Positions 2,944 to 17,159 of a stretch of 64,000 bases of DNA are shown here, piece after piece. A program made the translations under genes and the position numbers. The stretch comes from Clostridia bacterium (GTDB lineage Bacteria; Bacillota; Clostridia; Oscillospirales; CAG-272). The notes beneath the pieces are model-generated. The model did not search any database. It saw only the letters and a list, made by a program, of their open reading frames with translations, and was not told the origin of the DNA. The stretch covers positions 59,478 through 123,477 of the forward strand of contig JAFURQ010000027.1 in NCBI GenBank assembly GCA_017471825.1, in the 5' to 3' direction. Positions within the stretch are counted from its first letter, which is position 1. Each line of letters opens with the position of its first letter.

Positions 2944-5052
2944 ATGGTTCTGATAATCGCGGAAAAGCCGAGCCTTGCGCGTAATATCGTGGCTGGCATA
3001 GGTAAAATGGATAAAAAGGACGGCTATTTTATCAATTCCGATTATATAGTCAGCTGGGCGTTCGGTCACCTGTTTTCGCTCGTCGACGTCGAAACCTATA
3101 CCGGCACCACCGGCACAGGCTGGACCCTTGACACACTGCCTTGCTTTCCCGAAAAATTCAAGTTCGAGCTTAAACGCGGAAATGATAAGAAGGTCGATTC
3201 CGGAGTAAAAAAGCAGTTCTCCGTTATAGAAAAGCTCATCAACCGTCCCGACGTCGATACTGTTGTAAATGCAGGAGACGCGGACCGCGAGGGTGAGATT
3301 ATAGTAAGGCTTTGTATACAAAATTCGCTTAAATCTCCAAAGGAGCAAAAGCGTCTTTGGCTCCCTGACCAGACTCCCGAAACCGTCAGAAAGGCGCTTG
3401 CTGAAATGAAGGACGAGAGTGAGTATAACAGTCTTGCGGAGGAGGGCTTTGCCCGAACCTATATTGACTGGCTGTACGGCGTTAATTTGACACGGTATGC
3501 CACTATTCGCTCGGGACAGCTTCTCAGAGTGGGCAGAGTTATTGTTCCGATAGTCCGCGCAATATACGATAGGGATATAGAAATCAGAAATTTCAAGCCC
3601 GAAATATACTACGCCATACAATCAAGCGCAAAGACTCACGGGCAAAAAATTGACCTTGTAAGTAAACATAAGTTTGCAAAAGACGAGAAAAACAAGGCGG
3701 AAGAGCTCGCAACGCTTTACAATAATACGGGCGCTGTCGTATCTGCCGTTGAAAATAAAAAGGATACGATTTTCCCCGGAAAGCTTTACTCCTTGTCAAC
3801 TCTGCAAAACGTGCTTGGAAAAAAATATAAAATGAGCATGGCTGACAGCCTGAAAATTATACAAAAGCTCTACGAGGAGGGATACCTCACATATCCGAGA
3901 ACCAACTCGGAATACCTTGCAACTGCAGAAAAGGACAAAATGCGCTCGATAATCGCCAACGTTTCAAAGCTTGGATATCCCGTGCGCTTCAAGGACTCGA
4001 AATCAATATTCGATGACTCCAAAATCGAATCGCACTCTGCGCTTACCCCGACATACAAAATCCCCGACGTCAACAAGCTTGATGAAAAGGAAAAGCAGGT
4101 TTATTCCACCGTTTTCCGCAGATTTGTAGCGGTTTTCTGCGCCGAGGAGTGTATTGCGAGCAAGAGCGAGATACGGATAAAGGTTGGCGAGCTCGAGGAA
4201 TTTTCTCTCAAGGGTACGGTAATTCTTGAGCCCGGATGGACGAAATACGATGACTATTCCGGCAAGGATAAGGTCCTGCCCAAGCTTACAGTAGGGGAGT
4301 CGGTTAATATCGATTTCCAACCTACCGAAAAGGAAACCACACCGCCAAAGCATTACACTATCGAGACTCTCAATAAGTACCTTAAGAATCCTTTTAAGGA
4401 CGACAAGGCGAAGGCGCGCGAGCTTGAGGAGGCAGGCGAGGTCGACGATGCCGACGATTACCGCGCAATATTTGAAGGACTCGAGCTCGGCACCGAGGCT
4501 ACCCGTACGGGAATTATAGACAACGCCAGGAAAAGCGGATATATAAATCTCAAAAAGGATGTTTACACTATACTTGGCGGCGGTGAATTTCTTATAGAAT
4601 CGCTTGGACGCCTTGGTATCGCTATGGACAAGTATAAAACCAGCGAGATGGGCAAAGCGCTTAAAAAGGTTTTCCATGGAGAGATGAGCGCTGAAGAGAG
4701 TGTGAAGCTTGCAGAGCGTGAGATTCTCGAAATCTTCAAAAACGGAGGAACGGCGGTTGCTGCGGCGCCCGTACCGACAGGCTCGCTCGGTGAGATAGTC
4801 GGTCCTTGCCCCCTGTGCGGCAAGAACGTTATCAGAGGAAGACAGGGCTACGGATGTATGGGTTACAAGGAGGGGTGCGATTTCAGAATCGGGCTCACCA
4901 TTTGCAAAAAGACTGTACCGATAAATCAAATCCGCGCGCTTCTTGCGACGGGCACGACAGCAAAGCTTCGCGGTTTCATTTCAAAAACGGGAAAAAGCTT
5001 TGACGGAAAGCTGATAATAAAGGATGGAAAGGTTGTTTTTGATTTCAGTTGA
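2944..5052 (+). CDS. topB: DNA topoisomerase III with a C-terminal zinc-finger region
   Basis: MVLIIAEKPSLARNI is the Toprim N-terminus. YLTYPRTNSEYL contains the active-site Tyr region. The C-terminus has CPLCGKNV...GYGCMGYKEGCDF. GGAGG lies upstream of the start. Confidence 0.85.
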   Translation: MVLIIAEKPSLARNIVAGIGKMDKKDGYFINSDYIVSWAFGHLFSLVDVETYTGTTGTGWTLDTLPCFPEKFKFELKRGNDKKVDSGVKKQFSVIEKLINRPDVDTVVNAGDADREGEIIVRLCIQNSLKSPKEQKRLWLPDQTPETVRKALAEMKDESEYNSLAEEGFARTYIDWLYGVNLTRYATIRSGQLLRVGRVIVPIVRAIYDRDIEIRNFKPEIYYAIQSSAKTHGQKIDLVSKHKFAKDEKNKAEELATLYNNTGAVVSAVENKKDTIFPGKLYSLSTLQNVLGKKYKMSMADSLKIIQKLYEEGYLTYPRTNSEYLATAEKDKMRSIIANVSKLGYPVRFKDSKSIFDDSKIESHSALTPTYKIPDVNKLDEKEKQVYSTVFRRFVAVFCAEECIASKSEIRIKVGELEEFSLKGTVILEPGWTKYDDYSGKDKVLPKLTVGESVNIDFQPTEKETTPPKHYTIETLNKYLKNPFKDDKAKARELEEAGEVDDADDYRAIFEGLELGTEATRTGIIDNARKSGYINLKKDVYTILGGGEFLIESLGRLGIAMDKYKTSEMGKALKKVFHGEMSAEESVKLAEREILEIFKNGGTAVAAAPVPTGSLGEIVGPCPLCGKNVIRGRQGYGCMGYKEGCDFRIGLTICKKTVPINQIRALLATGTTAKLRGFISKTGKSFDGKLIIKDGKVVFDFS

Positions 5053-5863: not shown

Positions 5864-6805
5864 TTATTCTTCATCTGCTGTATTTTGTACGTTTTCCTTG
5901 CGCTTTGAATACAAAATGAGAGAGAAGGAAAGAGCAAAGCCTATAATAATGAACAGTACGCTGATTATCCAGTACCAAGCATTCGGCATAAGCTCCCCGA
6001 GCGAGAGCCCAGATTCCTTTGCGGTTGATATAAATACGGTCGGAATTGAGCCGACAATGAAGCCGATAATTGCAAAATACGTACCGCGCGGGCATTTTGC
6101 CAGAAGAATCTTCATAATTATGCTGATTATGAAAAATCCAATCACAATTCCGGCGCCCGTTGTTCCGAGCACCGCGATGGAAACGCCGATATCGCGTCCC
6201 TTAAGCAGGTGGTCTGTGGCGATGGATATTATGGGGTTATAGTATCCCAGAATAAGAAGAAGCATGCTTCCCGATATGCCGGGAATGACGAGTGCCGCCG
6301 AGCCGATAAGTCCAACGAGGAACAGAAGCACGTAGCCGCCAAAATTAAGGTTCAGTAAATTTACGTCTGCACTTACCGGTAGGAATGAGAGCGCCAGGGC
6401 GAAAAGAAGGGGGATTATCAAGGCAATAATATTGGTTGCGCTCGGCTTTCCCTTAGTTTTGTCGGTTATGGAGAAAAGTCCGCCGAATGCAAGTCCTACG
6501 AAAATACATACGGTAGGGATGGGAAATGCCTCAAGCGCCCAGCCGAGGGGGAAGAGCAGGGCGAGAACTCCCGCCACCATTCCTATCGCTACGGGCAGAA
6601 GGGTTAAAACGCTTTTCTTAAAATTCTTGAATATGTCTGCAATGGCATCGATAAGCTTCTCATAAATTCCAAGAATCGCAGCTATTGAGCCGCCTGAAAA
6701 TCCAGGGATTATGAAGGCAATGCCGATTAGCATTCCATATATTATATCCGTGAAAAAGGTTTTCACCGCGCAGGATGCGCCAACCTTATTTTCATTCATT
6801 TTCAA
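5864..6805 (-). CDS. DUF368 family polytopic membrane protein (family implicated in undecaprenyl-phosphate recycling)
   Basis: The duplicated IPGFSGGSIAAILGIY / IPGISGSMLLLILGYY motifs are characteristic of DUF368. Confidence 0.75.
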   Translation of the reverse strand: MKMNENKVGASCAVKTFFTDIIYGMLIGIAFIIPGFSGGSIAAILGIYEKLIDAIADIFKNFKKSVLTLLPVAIGMVAGVLALLFPLGWALEAFPIPTVCIFVGLAFGGLFSITDKTKGKPSATNIIALIIPLLFALALSFLPVSADVNLLNLNFGGYVLLFLVGLIGSAALVIPGISGSMLLLILGYYNPIISIATDHLLKGRDIGVSIAVLGTTGAGIVIGFFIISIIMKILLAKCPRGTYFAIIGFIVGSIPTVFISTAKESGLSLGELMPNAWYWIISVLFIIIGFALSFSLILYSKRKENVQNTADEE

Positions 6806-7728: not shown

Positions 7729-8727
7729 TTAACGGTATTCATCAAGCACGCTTTTTAATAGCTCGGGGTTATCCGTCATAATGCAGTCACATCCCAGCTC
7801 AATAAGCTCGCGCATTTCATCGGGATCGTTGATAGTCCAATACTGTACCGCAATATTTCTCTTGTGGGCGCGCTTTATGATAGTTTTCTTCGTCAGATTG
7901 AGCTCTATACCGAGATCGTAGCTCATGGGAATCTGAAGGCAGGCAAAATCACTGTTGTCAAAAATATTTACACCAAGAAATTGCGTTATGATAAATTTTG
8001 CGGCGGTGCCTGTGGGGGCACCTCTCAAAAGATCCGGGTATTTAGCCTTCAGCTCATCCTCAATTTCGTCGTGGAAGGTACCGACAACTATCTGATCTCT
8101 GTAATTGGGGTATTGATTAAGCGTAGCGTTTAAAATTTCACACGCCCTGTACCCAAGCTCTCCGTCGTTCTTAATTTCAACGATAAAAAGCAGGTCGGGG
8201 TGGCTCTCGTAAAATTCCGCAAAAAGCTTGTCAACGGTTGCAATCTGAAGCCCTGATTCCTTAAGCTCCACGGCGTCCTTGTGTATTCTTTCTCCGTTTT
8301 CATCCTCAAAGTAGTATCCGAAATTATACTGCTCAAGCTCGGCAAGCGTCATATCCTTTATGTAGTGGCGGTTTGCCTTGTCCTCGCAAAGAGCCTCAAC
8401 CTCCTCGAGCGTGATATCGCCGTTTACGTTGCAGGTTTCATCAATGTACGAGTCGTGGTTGTATACGAGATAGCCGTCCTTCGTGAGATAAAGGTCGCTT
8501 TCTATTATATCTACGCCGATTGTCTTTACGGCTTCTCTGAATGCAAGCATCGTGTTTTCGGGGTTGTTATCACCGCCGCCTCTGTGTGCGGCAATCATAG
8601 GCAGCTCGCCCTCGGCAACAACAAAAGGGTTATTTTCAACGTTTGCTTTTGGCGGAATGAGGTTTATCACCAGCATAAATACTGTGATAACTGCCAGAAT
8701 TATAGCAATAATTTTTAAAGCTTTCAT
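7729..8727 (-). CDS. glycerophosphodiester phosphodiesterase family protein, membrane-anchored
   Basis: There is an N-terminal TM helix, followed by AAHRGGGDNNPENTMLAF...ESDLYLTKDG..V..HD (GDPD motifs). Confidence 0.8.
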   Translation of the reverse strand: MKALKIIAIILAVITVFMLVINLIPPKANVENNPFVVAEGELPMIAAHRGGGDNNPENTMLAFREAVKTIGVDIIESDLYLTKDGYLVYNHDSYIDETCNVNGDITLEEVEALCEDKANRHYIKDMTLAELEQYNFGYYFEDENGERIHKDAVELKESGLQIATVDKLFAEFYESHPDLLFIVEIKNDGELGYRACEILNATLNQYPNYRDQIVVGTFHDEIEDELKAKYPDLLRGAPTGTAAKFIITQFLGVNIFDNSDFACLQIPMSYDLGIELNLTKKTIIKRAHKRNIAVQYWTINDPDEMRELIELGCDCIMTDNPELLKSVLDEYR

Positions 8728-8740
8728 TTTTGCCTCCGAT

Positions 8741-9442
8741 TTATTTGTTCACCGTAAATTTGCAGTTGGGATAGTTTGAGCAGCCGTAAAACTCGCCGTT
8801 TCTTCCGTTTCTCAAAACGAGCTTACCGTTGCATCTGGGGCAGATACCCTTGTCGATTTTCTTCTGATTTTCCTTGATACTCTTCACGTGCTCGCGTGAG
8901 GAAACCGTGCGGCTTGCCGCCGCCTTTAGGGTTTCATATATCCCGTCAATCTCCTTGCGATTATACTTTGTGCCGTCATCGTAATGCGCGAGGTAGTGCT
9001 TCAGGTCGTCAAGGTTGACTACGTATGGCACGTCGATCTTGTCCGCGTTATTCTGCACCATAACTACGAGGGAATTGACCTTGTAGCTCGGGCCGAGCAC
9101 GCGCTCAAGCTGGCGTATGTGAGATTTGTTTTGCCTTATGGGGTTGTTATGCTCGTGCTTCAGATTGCCGAGCACCTGTACCCACTTTTCTCTCTCCTCG
9201 TCGCCGTAAATAATTCCTGCATAGTTTTTCGTTTCTATACAGAAAATTCCGTTGCTTCTGATCTCAACGTGATCGATCTGATGGCTGTTTCCGTATCTGT
9301 CAACAAGCATCAGATTGTTTATCGTTTTGTTGTATGTAGCATCAAAAATCAGGGGATTAAGCTTTGAGTTTACCTTTCTTTCTCCCGCCTTTCCTTTGGC
9401 GTTGTTTACAATGGGTTGTACCATTTTTTTGAAAAATCCCAT
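8741..9442 (-). CDS. NERD-domain protein with a C-terminal topoisomerase-type zinc ribbon
   Basis: GERKV...IDHV..R..GIFCIETKNY is a NERD-like core. The C-terminus carries CPRCNGKLVLRNG..GEFYGCSNYPNC. Confidence 0.65.
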   Translation of the reverse strand: MGFFKKMVQPIVNNAKGKAGERKVNSKLNPLIFDATYNKTINNLMLVDRYGNSHQIDHVEIRSNGIFCIETKNYAGIIYGDEEREKWVQVLGNLKHEHNNPIRQNKSHIRQLERVLGPSYKVNSLVVMVQNNADKIDVPYVVNLDDLKHYLAHYDDGTKYNRKEIDGIYETLKAAASRTVSSREHVKSIKENQKKIDKGICPRCNGKLVLRNGRNGEFYGCSNYPNCKFTVNK

Positions 9443-9491
9443 ACTGTTTCTCCTGTAAAGTGATTTATTTCTAAAGCTTTCAATTTAAATG

Positions 9492-10253
9492 TTAAGAAAA
9501 GGAAATTGTTTTTTTCATCCATACGTGTGGGCGTCCTTGCTCGTATTCTATGCCACCCACTCTTGAATATCCGTTTTTTGCATAGAAATTTTCTGCTGAG
9601 CATTGTGAATGCAATAAAATGCACTTACCGCCCATGCGGTATGCATATTTCTCTGCTTCATTAAGCATACGTCTGCCTACTCCGATTCTGCGATACTCTG
9701 CTAAAACGGCAAACCTGCCCAAGATATAGATATCCGTGTCGTCTTTTTTGAACAAACGGCAGGTGGCAATCGGCTTTTTACCATCCATTAAAAGAAAATG
9801 CTTGGCGCGCTCGTCAATATCATCCCATTCGTCGACTAGCTCTTGCTCTTTTGTAAATACCGTTGTGCGAACGTATTTTGCACCGTCGGGAAGACGGCTG
9901 TAAATTTCAATTTTGCCCTCTCGAGAACCTTCTGTATGTACAGCACTTTTAAAGTATTTCTCTTGAAAGGCTATCCTTTTAGTTATTTCCTCGGCGCTAA
10001 ATTCGACGCCATCGGGAGCGACAACCCATTTTTCTTCAACGTCATCCTCACGGCTAACGGTGGCAATAACGGTTCCGTTAAAGCTTTCGATAGGCTCATC
10101 GACACCCAAAACGTAGGCATCCTGTTCCTCACCGTCGCCTCCGATTATCCCGGGAATGTAGCCATAGTTTACCTCGTAAACTATATTTGCGTGCTCAGGA
10201 TGTACACTTCCGAGTGGTCTGTCGATAACTACGTGAACTCTTTTTCCTATCAT
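9492..10253 (-). CDS. fusion protein: inorganic-pyrophosphatase-like N-domain plus GNAT acetyltransferase C-domain
   Basis: The N-terminus reads VIDRPLGSVHPEH..IVYEVNYGYIPG..GGDGEEQDAYVLG. The C-terminus reads LGRFAVLAEYRRIGVGRRML..AE (GNAT motif A). Confidence 0.65.
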   Translation of the reverse strand: MIGKRVHVVIDRPLGSVHPEHANIVYEVNYGYIPGIIGGDGEEQDAYVLGVDEPIESFNGTVIATVSREDDVEEKWVVAPDGVEFSAEEITKRIAFQEKYFKSAVHTEGSREGKIEIYSRLPDGAKYVRTTVFTKEQELVDEWDDIDERAKHFLLMDGKKPIATCRLFKKDDTDIYILGRFAVLAEYRRIGVGRRMLNEAEKYAYRMGGKCILLHSQCSAENFYAKNGYSRVGGIEYEQGRPHVWMKKTISFS

Positions 10254-10262
10254 AATGCGGCG

Positions 10263-10487
10263 TTATTTTTCCACTTGCTCACTGTCGCACGGCGGATTTT
10301 CATTTTGTGTTATTGCCTCGTCTTGCGCATCCTCAGAGCTTTCTTGTATTTCGCTCATATATCCGGCGGTGATAATACCGGCAGGCAATGCGACTATTGC
10401 AATTCCGAGCACGGAAGAAATCATTGTAATAACCAACGATAAAAATGCACTTCTTGAACCTTCAATAAAAGCATTATTGAGAATACA
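10263..10487 (-). pseudogene. 3' remnant of an ion-transport (K+ channel-like) gene: last TM helix and acidic tail only
   Basis: The reverse frame reads ...SLVITMISSVLGIAIVALPAGIITAGYMSEIQE...EQVEK*, which resembles the post-pore S6 segment of bacterial ion transporters. The frame is closed by TAG at 10488-10490 and no pore or N-terminal part is present. The plus-strand ORF 10255..10545 is a shadow. Confidence 0.45.
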
Positions 10488-10503
10488 CTATTTTTCAATA
10501 TCC

Positions 10504-11238
10504 TTACCAATCGTTTTCTTCTTTAACAACAAATTTCCATCTTAGTTTTTCAGCTCTAATACTGCTATATTTTTTAATATGGTCAAAATCGACCTCATCA
10601 CTGTCTACCCAATAAACCATATCATCTTTAAATATTACACTGGAGGAATATATTCTGTTATATGGTCCAAAGGCAAAGTCGATACAGATACCGCCTTCAA
10701 ATTCTAAAATAGCATCAAACGCTGCTTGTGAGTTGAATTTTAATTGTACTGTAGCTTCTTCTTCGCAACTATAAGGATTTGATTTAGCTGTAATTGAAAT
10801 TAAATACCAATCATGAAATCCACCGGTGTGATTCATCATATCTTCTGCTTCATCTTCGTTAGTTATCTCATTCCATTTGTCAGGATCTATATTAGCATTC
10901 ATTTCTTTAGCTAAAGTTATATATTTTTCATCTACTTGATTAGATTGTTCAATAGCTTTAAATACACTGACGTCTTCAATTAACCAGGGATAACCGGCAC
11001 AACTATCGATTTCGCCCATATTAATTTTTAACTTTGACTTTCTAACAAAACCATCTTCATGTTCATTCATTAAACCAATTTGTCTATGACCGTCACATTT
11101 TGCTGAAAAATAAGCAACAATATCAAACTTTTCATCAATTGGATCATACACAACGTAATGAGGCATATAATCATACTTAAAGTAAGCGAATACATACGAA
11201 TAATAAACTTTACCTTTATACTCTATTCTTGCATACAT
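10504..11238 (-). CDS. hypothetical protein in an AT-rich island; the C-terminal half looks like a polymorphic-toxin immunity protein (speculative)
   Basis: The start was set at MYARIEYK (ATG at 11238) because it is preceded by AAGGAGAG. The longer ORF (to 11355) merely reads through a relic of the rumA 3' end. No family was recognised. Confidence 0.55.
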   Translation of the reverse strand: MYARIEYKGKVYYSYVFAYFKYDYMPHYVVYDPIDEKFDIVAYFSAKCDGHRQIGLMNEHEDGFVRKSKLKINMGEIDSCAGYPWLIEDVSVFKAIEQSNQVDEKYITLAKEMNANIDPDKWNEITNEDEAEDMMNHTGGFHDWYLISITAKSNPYSCEEEATVQLKFNSQAAFDAILEFEGGICIDFAFGPYNRIYSSSVIFKDDMVYWVDSDEVDFDHIKKYSSIRAEKLRWKFVVKEENDW

Positions 11239-11310
11239 AACATTTACGCTCTCCTTGTAAAGAATTTCGCCTGCGGGCGAAAGCGATATTATTTTGCTTT
11301 GCTCAATATA

Positions 11311-11355
11311 GTTTGTCTGACGCGTCAGACAAACGACACTCTCGACGTGGGTCAA
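11311..11355 (-). repeat. displaced copy of the rumA-family 3' end (encodes HVESVVCL), embedded in a 24-nt perfect palindrome
   Basis: Positions 11327-11349 (agacaaacgacactctcgacgtg) match 12872-12894 at 21 of 23 nt, and both encode HVESVVCL. The palindrome gtttgtctgacg/cgtcagacaaac spans 11311-11334. Confidence 0.6.
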
Positions 11356-11358
11356 GAC

Positions 11359-11416
11359 GCCAAAAGGTATATTTTTAGGCTAAAAACAGGGGTTGTAAAG
11401 CCAAAAGGTATATTTT
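11359..11416. repeat. 17-nt perfect direct repeat (gccaaaaggtatatttt) in two copies, 41 bp apart
   Basis: The copies at 11359-11375 and 11400-11416 were read directly. Confidence 0.8.
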
Positions 11417-11473
11417 ATTCTCTCTTTTCCCATTCTTTTGAACTGCGACTTAATTATTTATTTGATCGTTTTG

Positions 11474-12208
11474 TCAATCGCCGATAAACTTCCAATATTT
11501 TTTAGTTATAGCTTCTCTTATCTTATCTTCAAGCATAGCGGCGTGATCGTAATCTCGGCTCTCGTTCCATTCTTGACTACTGTAGCTTGCCGCCATTCTG
11601 CGATACTCCGCCCTTATCACTTCTCTTTGCTCCTCTGTCAGATAGCGAACAGGAGTTTTGCGTATGGTTTCCACATCGCACCCAAGCTCCTCGCCTCTAG
11701 CGCGCATTGTGCTATAATAGTTATCAAGAAGCACATTTTCGTCAATGGGATTTGTAATATCTAAGCTTTTGAGCATTTCGTTTTCACAGGGTGTCATATA
11801 TTCAAACGCGCTTATGTCCGTATAGCTTTTCGAAAAGCTCTCGCCGCGATGTAGAATTCTTTTTGTATCTCCATTCTTTATGTTTGGTGGAAAGTAGGCA
11901 AAGCTACCACTATCCAAGCCATGCTGTCCCCAGCCATAACCAAAAAATTGAAAATCCGGAAATGAATACTTACGGATACATACGTTTTTATCGTTTAGCA
12001 TTTCAATAAAAAGCGACTTTGCCTCGGGGCTTATGGCAACCTTTTCTACGCCGTTAACCTCCGTTTGGTATACAATCGAGTTATAGTTGCCGAATTGCTT
12101 TTTGCCCGCAACAGTGAAAATATATTTGCTATCCTCTTTTGCGGAATCGAAAACGAGCATATCCTCGCCGTTTTCGTCTTTATCAAGGTAAATTTTTATG
12201 TAGATCAT
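11474..12208 (-). CDS. hypothetical protein (244 aa), AT-rich island
   Basis: This is a long ORF with coding-like composition. No family was recognised. Confidence 0.55.
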   Translation of the reverse strand: MIYIKIYLDKDENGEDMLVFDSAKEDSKYIFTVAGKKQFGNYNSIVYQTEVNGVEKVAISPEAKSLFIEMLNDKNVCIRKYSFPDFQFFGYGWGQHGLDSGSFAYFPPNIKNGDTKRILHRGESFSKSYTDISAFEYMTPCENEMLKSLDITNPIDENVLLDNYYSTMRARGEELGCDVETIRKTPVRYLTEEQREVIRAEYRRMAASYSSQEWNESRDYDHAAMLEDKIREAITKKYWKFIGD

Positions 12209-12283
12209 AGTTATTCCTCTCTGTATGTTAAAGATACCGCTATAAAATGAACTTTTGAGTTTTGCTCAAAAGCAATATTGTCC

Positions 12284-12637
12284 TTAACTGTTTTCCTTTG
12301 CAGTGGTGATAGATTTAACTAACATACGGCGGATGATTCCACATTCTTGCAAAAGTTCTTTTGAAATTTGTTCGCTTATTGCATTTGAGCCGACGAGCAT
12401 TTCAATCCAATATTCTGTTTCACCGCACTCTTTTAGTGCAATATGGAATTTGTTTATAAAGTCTGCTTTGCTTACAGCATAGTTAGCCTCATGAATATTT
12501 GCTCCAATAGAGGTTGCACTCCTCACGATTTGATTTACAAGAACACCTCTGCCTTTGCGAGTGTCAACCTCGTCACAGACAGCGATTATGTGTAGAGCAA
12601 GTGCCTTTGCTCTTGTGCGTAATTCGGAATCTTTCAT
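12284..12637 (-). CDS. four-helix-bundle protein (23S rRNA intervening-sequence protein / DGR Avd-like family)
   Basis: The 117-aa protein carries ...QIVRSATSIGANIHEANYAVSKADFINKFHIALKECGETEYWIEML..., a typical TIGR02436/PF05635 pattern. Confidence 0.8.
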   Translation of the reverse strand: MKDSELRTRAKALALHIIAVCDEVDTRKGRGVLVNQIVRSATSIGANIHEANYAVSKADFINKFHIALKECGETEYWIEMLVGSNAISEQISKELLQECGIIRRMLVKSITTAKENS

Positions 12638-12659
12638 ATTCTTCCCCTTTGTGTGGTTG

Positions 12660-12850
12660 GTGAAGTTTTGCTCCTTCGTCGCAAAGTGAAGTTACTCACT
12701 TCGTTCGTAGTGAAGTTGTTCGCTTTGCTCACAGTGAAGTTAAGTTCGCCTCAAAATTACTTCTCACTTGCGCCGCAAGCGACGCAAACTTCACTTCGGC
12801 GGTAGCCGAAACTTCACTGCTTTGCAACTTCACTCGCCGCAGGCGAACTT
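12660..12850. repeat. motif array: GTGAAGT four times in direct orientation (24-26 nt period), then ACTTCAC three times (plus one variant), each separated by a different short hairpin
   Basis: GTGAAGT occurs at 12660, 12686, 12710 and 12734. ACTTCAC occurs at 12788, 12811 and 12827, with the variant acttctcac at 12769. The intervening hairpins are ttcggc-ggta-gccgaa, tgc-ttt-gca and tcgcc-gca-ggcga. A 9-bp pairing aagttcgcc (12742)/ggcgaactt (12842) could close the domain. Confidence 0.7.
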
Positions 12851-14229
12851 AGTTGTCGAGTCTGTCGTTTGAGACAAACGACAGACTCGACGTGTCCTGT
12901 CGCAGGAAAAAGGTCGAAGGGTGTAACTGTGCCGGGGGTATAGCCGAGGTCGGCAAAGAGGCGGCAGTCACGGGCAAGAGTCGTCGGATTGCAGGAGATA
13001 TAGACAATTCGTGAGGGGGAAAGAGATGCCGCAAAGCTTACAAGACGGGCATCGCAGCCCGCACGTGGCGGATCCAGAATTACAACGTCGGGGCGGATGG
13101 TGCGGCCAAGCTCGCGCTCGGCGCGTTCAAGGAGCTTTTCGGTGTCTTTGGCGTCACCCGTGTAAAATTTTGCGTGCTTTATATCGTTGGCGGCGGCGTT
13201 TTCGGTGGCGCATTTTACCGCGCTGTCAATGATTTCTATGCCGATAAGCTCGCCGCACTTGTCAGCCATTGAAAGACCGATTGAGCCTGCGCCGCAGAAA
13301 AGGTCGAGCACGGTGTCAGAGCTCTTTGGAGCGGCGAGCTCGCGTGCCTTGGCGTACAGCATATCCGCCGCCGCGCGGTTTACCTGATAAAACGAGGGGG
13401 CGGTTATCTTCAGCCTTACACCGCCGAGGGTGTCGAAAATGTAATCCCTGCCGAAAAGCGTGCGCCATCCGTTGCCGAGAATTACGTTCGTTGCCGCTGT
13501 GTTGGTATTCAGAAGTATTCCTACTATTTCAGGGTATCTCTCGTTCATTATCCGAACAAGCTCACGCTCGCAGGGAATTGAATCACCGTTTATAACGAGA
13601 GTCAAAAGAACCTCTCGGCTGATTTCGCCGCGGCGTAAATATACGTGCCGCAGGAGCCCTGTGCCGCTCTCTTCATCGTATACCGAAACAGAGTGCTTTT
13701 TGAAGAAGGTGGCAAGCGTGTCAAGAATTTCGCCGAAAATTTCGGGCGCAAGAGGGCAGTGGCGCGCCTCGGTTACCCTGTGCGATTTCGGCGCGTAAAA
13801 GCCTATTACGTAATTGCCATCCTTGCCGATAGCGATGGGGTACTGCGCCTTGTTCCTGTAGCCGACAACCTCGGGGGAGGGAACAGCGGGTGCGATTGCC
13901 ACCTCGCGCAGTCCCTCGTGAGCGAATGCCTCGCGCACGGTTTTCTCCTTCAGCTTCAGCTCATGCTCGTAAGAGATGCTTTTGTATGCACAGCTTTTGC
14001 AAGCCGATATATCGCATCTTCCGTCATGGCGCAAGGGGGATTTTTCTATATATTTCTCTACACGCCCTATGGCGTATGATTTATTTACCTTGATAATTCT
14101 CGAGTCTATAACGTCGCCGCTGATAGCATCCGAAACAAATACTATCTGCCCCTCGTGTCTGCCGACACCGAAGCCGAGATTTGTTATGTCGTTTATTTCG
14201 AGTCTGATAATATCGTTCTTTTTAAGCAT
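12814..14229 (-). CDS. 23S rRNA (uracil-5-)-methyltransferase, RumA/TrmA family (TRAM plus Fe-S plus SAM-methyltransferase domains)
   Basis: There is a TRAM-like N-terminus and a Cys cluster CDISACKSCAYKS. DLFCGAGSIGL, DPPRAGC and YISCNPTTLARD are class-I methyltransferase motifs. The C-terminal tail after HVESVVCL runs into the repeat array. Confidence 0.85.
   Translation of the reverse strand: MLKKNDIIRLEINDITNLGFGVGRHEGQIVFVSDAISGDVIDSRIIKVNKSYAIGRVEKYIEKSPLRHDGRCDISACKSCAYKSISYEHELKLKEKTVREAFAHEGLREVAIAPAVPSPEVVGYRNKAQYPIAIGKDGNYVIGFYAPKSHRVTEARHCPLAPEIFGEILDTLATFFKKHSVSVYDEESGTGLLRHVYLRRGEISREVLLTLVINGDSIPCERELVRIMNERYPEIVGILLNTNTAATNVILGNGWRTLFGRDYIFDTLGGVRLKITAPSFYQVNRAAADMLYAKARELAAPKSSDTVLDLFCGAGSIGLSMADKCGELIGIEIIDSAVKCATENAAANDIKHAKFYTGDAKDTEKLLERAERELGRTIRPDVVILDPPRAGCDARLVSFAASLSPSRIVYISCNPTTLARDCRLFADLGYTPGTVTPFDLFPATGHVESVVCLKRQTRQLSSPAASEVAKQ
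12855..12891. repeat. 16-bp perfect inverted repeat overlapping the last conserved codons of the rumA-family gene
   Basis: The sequence gtcgagtctgtcgttt gagac aaacgacagactcgac was read directly. Confidence 0.85.
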
Positions 14230-16363: not shown

Positions 16364-16407
16364 CTGCCCCGTCCTACGAGGCTTCTCACAGAGAAGCGAC
16401 GGGGCAG
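16364..16407. repeat. nested hairpin (10-bp outer stem, 7-bp inner stem) at the 3' end of the 4HB pseudogene
   Basis: The outer stem is ctgccccgtc ... gacggggcag and the inner stem is gcttctc aca gagaagc. Confidence 0.8.
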
Positions 16408-16769
16408 GGATTCGGCCTCCACTTTAGTTTCTTTTCTATCGTGATACAAGATGAGGTAAGCATTCTTTTTATTCTGCCGCAAAGATTACGGAGCGACTTG
16501 AAGGTTTGCTCGTCAATTGCACCCGATGCAAAGATAAGCTTGAGCCAAGACTCTGTTTCTGCACATTCTTTCCTTGCAATTTCGAGCTTGGAATGCATAT
16601 CTGCAAGGCTCTGGGGATATTGCGCCTCGGTAATATTGGCAAATACGCTTGACTAGGATTTCTTGATTTGAAAAACGGTGTTGGAGTCAATTTTGTGCTC
16701 ACTGCAAAGCTTGACAATTTTAACTGCCAATTCTTCGCTATACTCTAAAAGCAAATTGCGTTTTGCCAT
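16386..16769 (-). pseudogene. four-helix-bundle (Avd-like / 23S IVS protein) gene interrupted by an in-frame TAG
   Basis: From the ATG at 16769 the translation reads MAKRNLLLEYSEELAVKIVKLCSEHKIDSNTVFQIKKS*SSVFANITEAQYPQSLADMHSKLEIARKECAETESWLKLI.... The TAG at 16653-16655 sits where the family normally has Gly (G-[TS]-S-[IV]-x-A-N-I). AGGAGAAG lies upstream of the start. Confidence 0.7.
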
Positions 16770-16792
16770 CGTTCTTCTCCTATCCGTCCTAA

Positions 16793-16885
16793 ATCACGGC
16801 AGAGCCGTGATGCCATACGCCCGATGGGCGATTCCATACAATTCGCGAGAGCGAATTGATGCCATGCACAAGACCTTTGGTCTTG
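16793..16885. repeat. motif-hairpin array: GAT(G/T)CCAT(A/G)C three times, alternating with four different short hairpins
   Basis: The hairpins are at 16793-16811 (8 bp), 16819-16829, 16840-16857 (7 bp) and 16869-16885 (7 bp). The linker motifs are at 16809-16818, 16830-16839 and 16858-16867. Confidence 0.7.
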
Positions 16886-16923: not shown

Positions 16924-16928
16924 GTTTT

Positions 16929-17038
16929 TGGCGCAGAGGGAGGGATTCGATTCTCGCGCGAACTGCGCGCTCGGTCTTCCACGGTCGCGGACGTCCACAG
17001 GAAGTCCGCTCTACACCGTTTCCCCTTCGAATCCCTCC
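16929..17038 (-). other. unassigned 110-nt GC-rich element closed by a perfect 12-bp inverted repeat and ending in ...TCGAATCCCTCCCTCTGCGCCA (tRNA-3'-end-like)
   Basis: ggagggattcga (16939-16950) pairs with tcgaatccctcc (17027-17038). There is an internal 6-bp hairpin gcggac/gtccgc. The minus-sense 3' end resembles a T-loop, acceptor and CCA, but no cloverleaf can be drawn. Confidence 0.3.
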
Positions 17039-17049
17039 TTTTACAAAGC

Positions 17050-17084: not shown

Positions 17085-17159
17085 TGGTGACCCGTGGGAG
17101 AATCGAACTCCCGTTTCAGCCTTGAGAGGGCCGTGTCTTAGCCGCTTGACCAACGGGCC
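17085..17159 (-). tRNA. tRNA-Glu (anticodon CUC)
   Basis: The minus-sense sequence GGCCCGTTGGTCAAGCGGCTAAGACACGGCCCTCTCAAGGCTGAAACGGGAGTTCGATTCTCCCACGGGTCACCA folds into a cloverleaf. The anticodon loop is CT-CTC-AA, the T-loop is TTCGATT, and CCA is encoded. Confidence 0.9.

Follow-up and report, generated by a model that had tools for sequence, protein, structure and literature searches.

A duplicated rumA 3' end brackets a small putative gene cassette in a Clostridia bacterium

The 3' end of rumA is duplicated in a Clostridia bacterium, and the two copies behave like att-type direct repeats around foreign DNA at the 3' end of this gene. We analysed a stretch of 64,000 nt (contig JAFURQ010000027.1, positions 59,478 to 123,477; hereafter the window) and consider the interval between the copies to be probably one cassette of a tandem array that is anchored on the final rumA codons, is site-specific and resembles integrons or CIMEs. 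The original prediction, made from the letters of the window, had described a duplicated rumA end bracketing an AT-rich insert devoid of recombinase; this much holds, but its account of the extent of the insert, of the identity of the distal copy (copy B) and of the repeat array had to be revised. The features concerned, in the direction of rumA transcription, are the following.

12814..14229, minus strand: rumA/rlmD, 23S rRNA (uracil-5)-methyltransferase gene, 471 aa (Pfam tRNA_U5-meth_tr and TRAM)
12872..12894, minus strand: core copy A, HVESVVCL codons closing the intact rumA (sequence comparison)
12855..12891, unstranded: hairpin H0, perfect palindrome with 17-nt arms (12855-12871/12875-12891) and loop TCT (inverted-repeat search)
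12742..12854, minus strand: forward half-array F, Gut-1-like (Rfam Gut-1 RF01706 match), with units AACTAAGT (12847-12854), GTGAAGTT three times (12826-12833, 12810-12817, 12787-12794) and GTGAGAAGT (12759-12767); in its closing helix TAAGTTCGCC (12842-12851) pairs with GGCGAACTTA (12741-12750)
12660..12741, minus strand: reverse half-array R, AACTTCAC four times (12734-12741, 12710-12717, 12686-12693, 12660-12667)
12284..12637, minus strand: four-helix-bundle protein gene, 117 aa (PF05635, 84.3 bits; TIGR02436, 97.7 bits)
12251..12273, minus strand: terminator-like hairpin directly 3' of the four-helix-bundle gene
11474..12208, minus strand: ORF244a, orphan cargo gene, 244 aa (family searches, homologue search)
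11350..11430, minus strand: conserved cassette right end, ~80 nt (direct-repeat search and relatives)
11327..11349, minus strand: core copy B, putative displaced rumA end, HVESVVCL, then TRQTN, then TAT (a stop in relatives)
11311..11334, unstranded: copy B palindrome, perfect, arms 11311-11322/11323-11334 (12 nt), no loop (inverted-repeat search)
11265..11310, minus strand: reverse half-array remnant, GCGATAT family (read directly; compared with the L006 and L117 arrays)
10504..11238, minus strand: ORF244b, second orphan cargo gene, 31% G+C, unrelated to ORF244a
10263..10436, minus strand: short ORF, by eye a C-terminal fragment of an ion-channel gene (translation read only)
7729..10253, minus strand: rest of the variable island (GNAT-domain gene, NERD plus zinc-ribbon gene, GDPD gene)

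The duplication of the HVESVVCL codons in the same orientation is genuine, as originally claimed: the 23-mers CACGTCGAGTCTGTCGTTTGTCT (12872-12894, minus strand) and CACGTCGAGAGTGTCGTTTGTCT (11327-11349, minus strand) are identical at 21 of 23 nt, the Ser codon being TCT in copy A and AGT in copy B, and the repeat search extends the match to 35 nt at 83% identity. This codon pattern occurs twice in the 64 kb against 0.01 expected, and none of 100 shuffles reached two occurrences. No truncated second methyltransferase gene includes copy B, whose 23-mer exactly matches the second rumA-end copy of locus L166. RumA itself is 471 aa long in the window versus 455-460 aa in homologues; its tail continues for 18 residues past HVESVVCL, through the palindrome into the repeat array, with about 12 codons within the array rather than the 20 first reported. 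Among the 120 closest homologues of RumA, at least 58 carry similar C-terminal tails made of translated hairpin and array; the nearest RumA in the protein database is 75% identical. An identical 471-aa RumA is encoded by four contigs of public assemblies, two of which, from different samples, were shown to have the same gene order, and an assembly artefact was consequently rejected as the source of the locus. One of these two contigs, L001, is 100% identical to the window across 6 kb.

Two to three tandem copies of the rumA end were detected in six other Clostridia genomes, the named loci with extra downstream copies, syntenic or related, being L163, L165, L166 (two copies), L004 and L171 (two copies). 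Each of these downstream copies is preceded by the ~80-nt right end, which is conserved among genomes whose RumA proteins are just 63-75% identical. The downstream cores vary in codons where the change is synonymous or conservative (GAG/GAA, TCT/AGT/TCC, GTT/GTG), as expected of former coding ends. Such coding-like variation indicates that gene ends were displaced and would be compatible with site-specific or homology-driven recombination alike. Copy 3 of L166 reads CLTRK and a stop codon followed by a hairpin, and copy 2 of L004 reads CLTKKTQ and a stop codon; judging from these sequences, the last copy in both loci looks like the displaced native rumA end. Cassette content differs among close relatives and is common to distant ones. 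For instance, the flanks of L165 and L166 are 91.8% and 98.6% identical, with non-homologous cassettes of 1.1-1.6 kb between them; the second cassette of L166 consists solely of a ribosome-binding site, an ORF and a right end. The 3.6-kb cassette of L004 contains three ORFs, one of which lies on the opposite strand and reads like a cytosine-5 DNA methyltransferase. Relatives thus do not all have the same arrangement, with both cassette content and copy number being polymorphic.

The 1.5-kb insert delimited by the original prediction is AT-rich as stated, but represents one cassette of a ~5-kb island (12855 to ~7700) rather than the whole insert. The AT-rich stretch runs from ~10450 to 12700 (31-41% G+C versus 50-57% in rumA) and therefore passes copy B and takes in ORF244b (10504-11238), while similarity to relatives picks up again at a PHP gene, ~7689. 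The contents listed for the interval between the copies were all recovered: a four-helix-bundle gene, one orphan ORF, the array, a 17-nt repeat and no recombinase. The orphan, ORF244a, has no match in Pfam, NCBIfam, PADLOC or PHROGs; its 54 homologues come from Clostridia MAGs, and all those with a source name are called 'hypothetical protein'. Cassettes are shared in part between genomes, since positions 12350-11483, i.e., ORF244a and the 3' third of the four-helix-bundle gene, exhibit 84% DNA identity to the third cassette of the L168/L171 rumA array, which is from another organism; the two loci have different arrays and differ in the 5' portion of the four-helix-bundle gene. The direct repeat of 17 nt is exact (AAAATATACCTTTTGGC, at 11400-11416 and 11359-11375) and belongs to the ~80-nt right end found conserved in six genomes, which also holds the spacer TTTACAACCCCTGTTTTT and, adjoining core copy B, GTCTTGACC. 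Beyond copy B, the half-array remnant (11265..11310) reads ATATTGA, then ATATCGC with the hairpin TTTCGCC-CGCA-GGCGAAA, and is followed by the ribosome-binding site of ORF244b, whose closest homologues (83-89% identical) are in some cases located in very AT-rich DNA of other contexts. On its right side the AT-rich block ends in a broken edge, marked by the short ORF at 10263..10436.

Each rumA-end copy lies in a perfect palindrome. At the intact gene the arms of H0 measure 17 nt and not the 16 first claimed, while the 12-nt arms at 11311-11334 were confirmed by the inverted-repeat search. The left arm of H0 corresponds to the rumA codons for VESVVC and the right arm to the reverse copy (complement) of those codons (fold z = -5.3). 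Across 9 genomes, compensatory changes were observed in 9 of the 17 pairs, and the right arm co-varies with the rumA codon usage of each genome. Folding energies range from -25 to -36 kcal/mol for H0 versus -9 to -17 kcal/mol at native rumA ends, where the folding comparison revealed no such hairpin. A complete palindrome is kept at displaced cores, namely copy B of the window and the second palindrome of L049; the centre of the former matches that in L006, and the copy B palindrome is presumably the H0 hairpin of an older cassette.

The repeat array of the original prediction is real, albeit of a different nature: it appears to be an inverted pair of divergent Gut-1 motifs (RF01706), associated with the four-helix-bundle gene beyond rumA as well. 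In the array, AGTGAAGTT occurs in three copies per strand versus 0.59 expected. Every unit of half-array F and every AACTTCAC unit of half-array R is followed by a short hairpin, and the closing helix is a general feature of such arrays. The Gut-1 model matches 12783-12855 (minus strand) over its full length with 31.8 bits (E = 7.7e-4; gathering score 50), and half-array R reads as a Gut-1-like motif on the plus strand, with a weak match at 12631-12721 (16.7 bits). In relatives, the forward half scores 54-80 bits and the reverse half ~50 bits on the opposite strand. Gut-1 was judged to be a likely RNA from covariation by Weinberg et al. 2010 (PMC2864571), being known from human-gut sequence only, with no organism, neighbour gene or function given; the contigs hosting the pairs described here are from Clostridia MAGs. 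As in the Gut-1 RNA motif, the forward half-array alternates conserved (G)UGAAAU-type units with short hairpins; the window copy differs by its GTGAAGTT units and its score under the 50-bit threshold, and diverges from the published motif in forming an inverted pair with a long-range closing helix, located after a hairpin and before a PF05635 gene. The small hairpins of both halves comprise 551 Watson-Crick, 9 G-T and 5 A-C pairs. From two features, the near absence of G-U pairs and the two-strand symmetry, we infer that folded DNA, or both strands, would be the functional form of the array, and not a classical one-strand RNA.

The protein encoded next to the array matches PDB 2rld (E = 6e-21). 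Its initial description as Avd-like reflects a genuine but weak likeness (PHROG Avd, E = 0.011), and no other DGR feature fits. Arrays were found upstream of 52 of 62 such genes at metagenomic loci, compared with 27 of 456 control windows; the upstream neighbour of the module is most often a tRNA gene (23 loci) or rumA (7 loci). Repeat family and protein clade go together, with nearest neighbours sharing a family in 56 of 57 cases versus 46% expected, and the GTGAAGTT family occurs in at least 5 distinct genomic contexts. The four-helix-bundle gene and array of the window belong to this family and have their nearest kin at non-rumA loci, while those of syntenic relatives belong to the ATGAATTG family. 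Duplicated tRNA ends flank a tRNA-adjacent module at one locus, L092, the others being generally devoid of them; consequently, the module may spread differently from the rumA cassettes. The Gut-1 pair and the four-helix-bundle gene form a self-contained, widespread unit of gut Clostridia, a pairing apparently new to the literature. Avd is pentameric and 2rld has five chains; by analogy, the protein is predicted to bind the 'octamer plus hairpin' units, of which each half-array has approximately five.

According to the explanation we favour, a cassette would begin with the rumA-end core (HVESVVCL codons), to which the reverse complement of the core is often appended, allowing the long hairpin H0 to form; its body would consist of one or a few same-strand genes and its right end of the ~80-nt element with two 17-nt direct repeats, adjoining the next core. 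Cassette 1 (12855 to ~11350) would then comprise H0, the inverted Gut-1-like pair, the PF05635 gene, ORF244a and the right end. Copy B would be an earlier rumA end pushed downstream, not the native end, and would head a decayed older cassette of the GCGATAT Gut-1 family followed by the foreign ORF244b; since the window contains no third, native copy, this older cassette has no definable limits. We infer that site-specific recombination inside the core, most likely within the shared stretch GTCGTTTGTCT, moves cassettes in and out, in a process resembling that of integron cassettes or CIME accretion at gene 3' ends. The recombinase would be encoded elsewhere in the genome: none was detected within 10 kb at the window or at the rumA loci of relatives, nor among the 25 Pfam families listed (of 49) for 35 of the larger ORFs of the window, and the search in the species of the window yielded no recombinase, excised circle or empty site.

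Alternatively, an ICE, IME or prophage may have entered rumA by means of a serine or tyrosine integrase and been reduced by deletions to a classical CIME, in which case the small size would result from decay and the cassette itself would not be the mobile unit. As the original prediction noted, rumA is a documented integration target: it receives streptococcal ICEs that encode a single serine integrase and exchange its 3' end upon insertion, and CTn5 of C. difficile can also insert there (PMC4701971). CIMEs and tandem accretion at gene 3' ends are likewise documented, in the ICESt1/ICESt3 family (PMC5704250). The window shares with rumA-targeting ICEs the gene, its 3' part, the replaced C-terminal tail of RumA and the short flanking direct repeats (an identity stretch of 23-35 nt, at or above the 2-21 bp reported; PMC4701971), and with CIME accretion the tandem units at one site and the native gene end displaced to the far side; its direct repeats, foreign composition and lack of recombinase also agree with decay. 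However, rumA ICEs span tens of kb, carry conjugation modules and have their distal repeat inside the integrase gene, whereas the window has no integrase and its distal repeat lies in short non-coding DNA. About a dozen cassettes (0.46-3.6 kb) from six genomes contain no recognisable integrase, relaxase or conjugation fragment, making simple decay of a streptococcal-type ICE unlikely. Unlike CIMEs, these units lack any relic of integration or transfer genes, have a conserved right end in common, frequently along with a structured left end, and form multi-unit arrays that recur in several genomes, more like a cassette system than decay products. Decay would not preserve the right end across such divergent hosts, and this element had no match in the viral contigs scanned. 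Overall, we consider a decayed element unlikely.

It is also improbable, in our view, that the locus lacks dedicated mobility and that the hairpin, the Gut-1 pair and the four-helix-bundle gene are an old vertical partner of rumA, e.g., an RNA-level unit whose hairpin ends or processes the rumA message, with extra copies and variable genes arising from homologous or illegitimate recombination or transformation at a structured region. The co-location of rumA, hairpin, array and four-helix-bundle gene in all syntenic relatives speaks for this, as do the translated tails of many RumA homologues, the covariation of the hairpin with coding sequence, expected of an RNA helix under selection, and the L084 module directly upstream of a rumA-like methyltransferase gene; moreover, rumA-linked modules leave no promoter room between array and four-helix-bundle gene, so that co-transcription with rumA is likely. 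Because the first cassette of every syntenic relative is of the four-helix-bundle type, the locus also fits an ancient module inherited vertically in linkage with rumA, turnover being confined to positions further downstream; RecA-mediated exchange, which needs no dedicated enzyme, could make use of the many conserved patches (cores, right ends, arrays, four-helix-bundle genes). Yet the difference in family (GTGAAGTT in the window, ATGAATTG in its syntenic relatives), together with nearest kin at non-rumA loci, indicates that the module of the window was replaced, not inherited. A vertical partner would leave the conserved right end at each downstream core without a role, and sits poorly with cassette DNA being shared with a genome that otherwise has a different rumA array. 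In addition, no T run follows the hairpin, which is thus not an intrinsic terminator, and most modules lie after genes other than rumA, tRNA genes among them. The notion of a DGR or its relic, with the rumA end as VR plus hairpin, the Avd-like gene as accessory factor and copy B as TR, hardly deserves credence: the order resembles target gene, VR, hairpin, avd and TR in that a PF05635 gene lies by a gene-end repeat with a strong hairpin after the first copy, and the weak PHROG match to Avd adds to it, but no reverse transcriptase was detected within 10 kb or in the Pfam families listed for the larger ORFs, the repeat is 23-35 nt versus ~100 nt or more, and duplicated cores also adjoin cassettes without any four-helix-bundle gene. 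We rejected this reading on the pattern of differences between the rumA-end copies (TCT versus AGT), which is not limited to template adenines.

The favoured cassette array finds partial counterparts in known systems. Integron cassettes form small same-strand arrays of mostly promoterless orphan genes, and attC clusters without integrase are termed CALINs; attC sites are structured and palindromic, with a variable sequence and a conserved fold. The rumA arrays resemble them in their small same-strand cassettes of mostly promoterless orphan genes, in palindromic separators that vary in sequence but keep their fold, and in content differing between close relatives; their hairpins would be accounted for if, as in integrons, recombination acted on a folded single strand. 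They differ in having no IntI-type integrase, no attI beside the array, no R''/L''/L'/R' attC signature recognisable by eye, larger inter-cassette regions (200-400 nt), a housekeeping gene end as anchor and a Firmicute host, integrons being to our knowledge essentially absent from Firmicutes. REP/BIME elements are associated with RAYT genes, and CTX phage attP is a single-strand hairpin attachment site. The former share with the arrays small palindromes of alternating orientation just past gene ends and inverted units flanking a small gene, but the associated protein here is a four-helix bundle, not a HUH or tyrosine transposase, and no solo array was found in the single window examined. The H0 stem reproduces the duplex of its chromosomal target, the rumA end, as in CTX attP, albeit with no sign of Xer recombinases taking part. 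The protein itself belongs to the same family as IVS ORF and Avd proteins (PF05635/TIGR02436), PF05635 being named '23S rRNA intervening sequence protein'. In contrast to DGR Avd genes, that of the window has no reverse transcriptase or template repeat, and unlike IVS ORFs it lies outside any rRNA gene. The genes of the present loci share with IVS ORFs a linkage to stable RNA, their neighbours being tRNA genes, 5S rRNA and an rRNA methyltransferase gene, and in L083, L049 and L117 the inverted half-arrays bracket the gene, as the two strands of a stem bracket the intervening-sequence ORF.

Read along the minus strand, the region that begins with rumA contains the following features.

14229-12814, minus: rumA (rlmD), 471 aa, TRAM and uracil-5-methyltransferase domains
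after the rumA body, minus: core A, the HVESVVCL codons, with the palindrome hairpin H0
12854-12742, minus: forward half-array of repeats
12741-12660, minus: reverse half-array
12284-12637, minus: PF05635 / TIGR02436 four-helix-bundle gene
12273-12251, minus: terminator-like hairpin behind the four-helix-bundle gene
11474-12208, minus: orphan ORF244a
~11430-11350, minus: right end with two direct repeats, between ORF244a and core B
11310-11265, minus: remains of two GCGATAT-family units, reverse type, after the core B palindrome, then a ribosome-binding site and ORF244b
10504-11238, minus: orphan ORF244b, 31% G+C, unrelated to ORF244a
10436-10263, minus: short 57-aa ORF (…GIAIVALPAGIITAGYM…), by eye the C-terminal end (final helix plus tail) of an ion channel that lacks its upstream part
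downstream of the short ORF to the PHP gene at ~7689, minus: three further island genes

The codons for HVESVVCL are duplicated in the same orientation, as originally predicted, at 12872-12894 (core A) and 11327-11349 (core B), with 21 of 23 nt equal and Ser codons TCT and AGT, respectively. Gapless extension lengthens the repeat to 35 nt at 83% identity. Chance is ruled out as its origin, since the codon pattern occurs twice in the 64 kb against 0.01 occurrences expected; no third copy of the rumA end was found in the window. The exact 471-aa RumA is encoded on four contigs of public assemblies, two of them from different samples and with the same gene order, and one is identical to the window over 6 kb: the locus is no assembly artefact. 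Both cores lie in perfect palindromes; the one at rumA (12855-12891) has arms of 17 nt rather than the 16 predicted, with a 3-nt loop, and the one at core B (11311-11334) has the anticipated 12-nt arms and no loop. The interval between the cores holds what had been listed for it, namely the four-helix-bundle gene, one orphan ORF, a repeat array and an exact 17-nt direct repeat, and no recombinase. The AT-rich insert is likewise real but larger than proposed, as the block extends from ~10450 to 12700, past core B, and takes in the second orphan ORF. RumA does read through into the array, with 18 residues after HVESVVCL, but only about 12 of these, not 20, are encoded in the array. A frameshift extending RumA (a 4-nt insertion, CGAC, in the KRQTN-type tail) was first considered and then dropped, because in relatives the full 17-nt right arm is normal and the reading frame is simply set by the junction. 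ORF244a and ORF244b are not mutual duplicates, showing no similarity (E = 0.43).

Core B and its palindrome match the rumA end of locus L006, which carries a GCGATAT-family module, as far as AACTA, and most of the array is missing beyond that point. Core B therefore heads an older decayed cassette and is not the native gene end. The partial ion-channel-like ORF suggests a deletion or insertion edge at ~10440-10500. Within the variable island, a gene at 8741-9442 (minus strand) fuses a NERD nuclease-related domain to a topoisomerase-type C4 zinc ribbon; it was not found in the islands of relatives. The sequence just past the stop codon of the four-helix-bundle gene (TAAGGACAA…CTTTTGAGCAAAACTCA) is conserved between the window (12251-12283) and L003 (9483-9520), and its start resembles a GGGACAAATGTTA box that L163, L166 and L004 have ahead of the cassette right end. 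This sequence may be a sub-boundary at which the four-helix-bundle unit gives way to the cargo ORF.

The nearest RumA in the protein database is 75% identical. As no close relative was available there, the syntenic loci of the three nearest long-contig homologues were compared. All three share a frame made of an AraC-family gene, rumA, a variable stretch and the PHP, VCA0040-like, DUF4830 and topA genes, and in all three a palindrome, a repeat array and the four-helix-bundle gene come after rumA, with differing small orphan genes between that gene and PHP. The comparison with relatives that had been put forward as a check of the original prediction thus shows that these loci are not invariant, both the orphan genes and the number of extra rumA ends being variable. 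One extra copy is located downstream of rumA in L163 and L165 and two in L166 and L171, and the first extra copy in L166 equals core B across the 23-mer. A single extra copy, 3.6 kb downstream, is present in L004, where RumA identity is 63%. The same non-coding element precedes every downstream copy, in the order roughly AAAATATACCTTTTGG, TTTACAACCCCCGTTTTT, a spacer, a second CCTTTTGG, about 10 nt and the core. The 17-nt direct repeat is accounted for by this right end, being the pair of CCTTTTGG-containing boxes conserved in relatives.

These loci contain a recurrent array of units, each bounded by a rumA-end core and a conserved right end, and native-like ends survive as the last copy. In two loci the last copy resembles the native gene end: copy 3 of L166 reads CLTRK and a stop codon, then a hairpin, and copy 2 of L004 reads CLTKKTQ and a stop codon; 23 of the 120 RumA homologues closest to that of the window have short native-like tails. 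The downstream cores vary at synonymous or conservative codons (GAG/GAA; TCT/AGT/TCC/ACT; GTC/ATC; GTT/GTG/GTA), a pattern that would be expected of former real gene ends. The smallest unit, the second of L166, spans 0.46 kb and consists of a ribosome-binding site, one ORF and the right end, and the largest, in L004, spans 3.6 kb with three ORFs, one of which is on the opposite strand and reads like a cytosine-5 DNA methyltransferase. Homologues of ORF244b at 83-89% identity were also found, some in very AT-rich DNA of unrelated contexts; no arrays or cores were seen near them at those loci.

Odd C-terminal tails, a practical point for annotation, are borne by at least 58 of these 120 homologues and are simply the product of read-through into such hairpin and array structures. 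Following HVESVVCL, these 120 proteins (P0001-P0120) fall into the classes KRQIQQ, TRRLDN(ELRERMN), TRTFDN, TRRLDVDMRR, xRQTN, xxSDKAT and short native-like; wherever the DNA was seen, the tails were read-through of hairpin and array. One homologue of 569 aa (P0088) also carries PF04266 (ASCH) and may be a read-through fusion across a hairpin and array region of this type. In L117, the gene behind a second forward half-array looks ASCH-like by eye.

The hairpin at the junction co-varies with the rumA codons. Every rumA end that bears a module has a 3-4-nt loop and behind it 15-18 nt that are reverse-complementary to the VESVVC codons of the same genome, and the consensus fold of H0 (RNAalifold, nine loci) has 17 pairs, 9 of which exhibit compensatory double changes. 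Module-bearing ends fold with -25 to -36 kcal/mol, whereas the range for ends that lack a module, be they native or displaced, is -9 to -17 kcal/mol. The complete palindrome can persist at displaced cores (core B of the window, the second palindrome of L049), which makes the hairpin a part of the cassette left end, the core being its 5' strand. H0 was rejected as an intrinsic terminator, defined by a G+C-rich stem and a T run, since no T run follows it; the palindrome is followed by AACTAAGTTCGCC, and the terminator scan does not call it. Folded single-strand attachment sites are exemplified by attP of CTX phage and attC of integrons. In mirroring the chromosomal target duplex, the H0 stem looks as such a site would, a comparison that we regard as a lead and not as a result.

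The two half-arrays that separate H0 from the four-helix-bundle gene form, together with that gene, the leading module and resemble the Gut-1 motif (RF01706). In a permissive Rfam search, the forward half-array in the window scored 31.8 bits, with E-values of 7.7e-4 (local) and 0.027 (whole window), and the reverse half 16.7 bits on the opposite strand, neither reaching the Gut-1 gathering score of 50 bits. The architecture of Gut-1, a repeated unit alternating with at least three short hairpins, is present and model positions 1-77 of 77 are matched; scores at related loci are higher, 54-80 bits for the forward half and, again on the opposite strand, 47-52 bits for the reverse half. Gut-1, in Rfam since 2010, was reported solely from human-gut sequence with no sequenced organism, and neither a function nor a neighbour gene was given (PMC2864571). 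It can now be assigned to Clostridia as hosts, through MAGs labelled Eubacteriales, Oscillospiraceae or Ruminococcus, and gains a fixed partner gene, a fixed position and a paired two-strand architecture, which render it experimentally testable.

The first unit of the forward half can pair with the array centre in a long-range helix that closes the half-array: an exact complement of at least 9 nt was found in 28 of 35 arrays (median about 12 nt), compared with 4 of 700 shuffles, about 6-7 nt being expected from the unit itself. The short hairpins of both halves comprise 551 Watson-Crick, 9 G-T and 5 A-C pairs without strand bias, and with hardly any wobble pairs they show no G-U strand asymmetry by which RNA could be told from DNA. 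Given these nearly pure Watson-Crick pairs and the two-strand symmetry, a role at the DNA level or on both strands appears to fit better than that of a classical single-strand RNA, though the array may act as RNA. In L083, L049 and L117 a second forward half, 88-98% identical to the first, lies behind the four-helix-bundle gene, so that direct repeats of the forward half bracket the reverse half and the gene. Two complete forward/reverse pairs are in tandem ahead of a single four-helix-bundle gene in L173 (2557-2971), and L095 contains long runs of repeated half-arrays (~3580-4830 and 6122-6430), which indicates that array copy number is variable. The (G/C)GAAAU(U) unit and its hairpin, seen in the window (12742-12854), L088, L092 and L112, recall the U1939 target of RumA in 23S rRNA, which we take to read …GCGAAAUUCCUUG… before a hairpin; the GCGATAT and ATGAATTG families are a poor fit to such a unit. 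If real, this resemblance could link the arrays to m5U methyltransferases.

The four-helix-bundle protein matches PF05635 over residues 3-107 of 117 (84.3 bits, cut-off 33.8), TIGR02436 (97.7 bits, cut-off 24) and PDB 2rld (E = 6e-21), an entry with five chains. Scanning metagenomes with an alignment of five such proteins returned 80 loci, of which 62 have 300 nt or more of upstream sequence. In 52 of these 62, the upstream region contains a 7-mer that occurs two or more times in each orientation, forward and inverted, compared with 27 of 456 control windows; if three or more copies per orientation are required, the counts are 35/62 and 4/456. The repeat family tracks the protein clade, and the repeats of the leading module diverge together with the protein: the nearest neighbour belongs to the same repeat family in 56 of 57 cases (46% expected), and mean identity is 70.8% within families versus 54.6% between them. 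Such a co-diverging array is a direct candidate ligand for the PF05635 family.

On the same strand, the gene next upstream is a tRNA gene in 23 loci, rumA in 7 and one of various protein-coding genes otherwise. Six tRNA-linked loci were read, and in each a uniform hairpin (A-run, stem, T-run) directly follows CCA and precedes the array. Some tRNA-linked modules have a consensus promoter between array and gene, so the array is not always part of the gene's mRNA; no such promoter is present in the window. The GTGAAGTT family to which the window belongs occupies at least five contexts, behind rumA (window), behind another protein-coding gene (L083), behind tRNA genes (L143, L049) and upstream of a rumA-like gene (L084). 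Duplication of a tRNA 3' end around tRNA-linked modules was found only in L092, where (3476-3740) the last 22 nt of tRNA-Tyr recur ~130 nt downstream with one mismatch, before the terminator, array and four-helix-bundle gene. In L084 (4001-5511), the module closest to that of the window (72% protein identity) lies directly upstream of a rumA-like methyltransferase gene with a 4-nt overlap; the latter encodes 384 aa and aligns only from RumA residue 77, providing a second, differently arranged link of these genes with uracil-5-methyltransferases.

Among called genes within 10 kb, no recombinase was found at rumA in the window or at any of the other rumA loci described, nor was one found in the window among the top 25 of 49 Pfam families listed for 35 of its larger ORFs. 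A parent element was sought in two viral-contig scans with right-end patterns, which gave no match; blastn found no match in plasmids and, as to a phage origin, only two short matches, confined to the conserved central part of the four-helix-bundle gene, to faecal 'bacteriophage' records that lack annotation. A related four-helix-bundle gene is present on only 2 viral contigs, both times at the contig end. PADLOC gave no match to a known defence system.

One main alternative, less likely in our view, is decay of a large rumA-targeting element, as in streptococci (PMC4701971; PMC5704250). As in ICEs and IMEs inserted in rumA, direct repeats are present, one of them in the 3' part of rumA, and the RumA C-terminus is replaced; the window interval also has the attL/attR-type flanks and the lack of integration and transfer genes that characterize CIMEs (PMC5704250). 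In elements integrated in rumA by a serine integrase, however, the distal integrase gene contains the distal direct repeat (PMC4701971), whereas here no integrase is present and ~80-130 nt of conserved non-coding DNA precedes that repeat. Another main alternative, likewise less likely, is an old rumA-linked module with homology-driven shuffling. The units turn over, being polymorphic between close relatives and common to distant ones. The flanks of L165 and L166 share 91.8% and 98.6% identity, yet the two loci are non-homologous over the 1.1-1.6 kb from the four-helix-bundle gene to the right flank. Window positions 12350-11483, which cover the 3' third of the four-helix-bundle gene and ORF244a, share 84% DNA identity with L168/L171, from another organism of the same sample series. 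The counterpart there takes third place among the units of a longer rumA array, and the two loci differ in their arrays and in the 5' parts of their four-helix-bundle genes.

A DGR is the remaining main alternative, and we know of no role for PF05635 ('23S rRNA intervening sequence protein') outside DGRs. This reading was rejected. No reverse transcriptase was found beside the four-helix-bundle gene, either among the called genes within 10 kb or among the top 25 of 49 Pfam families listed for 35 of the larger ORFs, and unlike a template/variable pair with adenine-only differences, the copies differ by TC versus AG in one codon of a 23-35-nt repeat. Nor is the gene inserted in a 23S helix, as an intervening sequence would be, there being no rRNA at the locus. 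Integron arrays offer tandem same-strand cassettes with structured recombination sites between them and content that varies among relatives, all of which are seen here; instead of an IntI-type tyrosine recombinase and attI beside the array, a conserved AraC-family gene lies upstream of rumA, and no attC signature (R''/L''/L'/R' with GTTRRRY) was recognised by eye. To our knowledge, integrons are essentially absent from Firmicutes.

We propose that the units enter by site-specific recombination within the core, the identical GTCGTTTGTCT being the likeliest crossover zone, through a recombinase that would be encoded elsewhere. Avd is pentameric; by analogy with it and with the five chains of 2rld, the four-helix-bundle protein may bind roughly five units per half-array. 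A broader reading, which we put forward as a rather unlikely one, is that Gut-1 arrays and PF05635 proteins constitute an unrecognised, recombinase-less and structure-guided cassette system of Firmicutes. Arrays and target-mimicking hairpin would serve as folded-DNA recombination or docking sites, and the co-diverging, probably pentameric protein as specificity factor, each 'octamer plus hairpin' unit being matched by a single subunit. Docking would take place behind hairpins at tRNA, rRNA-related and other gene ends, and integron-like arrays would form on rumA. There is a minority chance that the rumA array is the visible part of such a new system. If so, the orphan 'intervening sequence protein' family would gain a function, and there would be a hint as to how intervening sequences entered 23S rRNA helices. 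Should rumA arrays exchange cassettes without a resident integrase, they would represent an integron-like system in Firmicutes, with a cargo of orphan genes and possibly modification or defence genes. Integration at rumA, tandem arrays of the CIME type, the Gut-1 motif and the PF05635 family are each already known singly. The searchable literature yielded no description of a unit formed by the Gut-1 pair and the four-helix-bundle gene, of its placement behind hairpins at tRNA-gene and rumA ends, of a palindrome co-varying with rumA codons or of a conserved right end defining small recombinase-less rumA cassettes.

A second PF05635 gene lies in the window at 16386-16769 (minus strand), downstream of tRNA-Glu (17085-17159), and is probably a pseudogene given its in-frame TAG at 16653-16655. 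Ahead of it, units of the TATGGCAT type with hairpins make up a half-array (~16770-16870). A tRNA 3'-end-like remnant, ATCGAATCCCTCCCTCTGCGCCA, called by neither ARAGORN nor Rfam, is located at ~16925-17040 (minus strand) and closed as a perfect 12-bp stem (GGAGGGATTCGA / TCGAATCCCTCC). L049 also contains a second four-helix-bundle gene (12764-13111, minus strand), behind a tRNA gene and with GTGAAGT-type arrays, that bears a premature in-frame stop after codon 22. Four-helix-bundle genes with in-frame stops were thus seen twice, in two different genomes.
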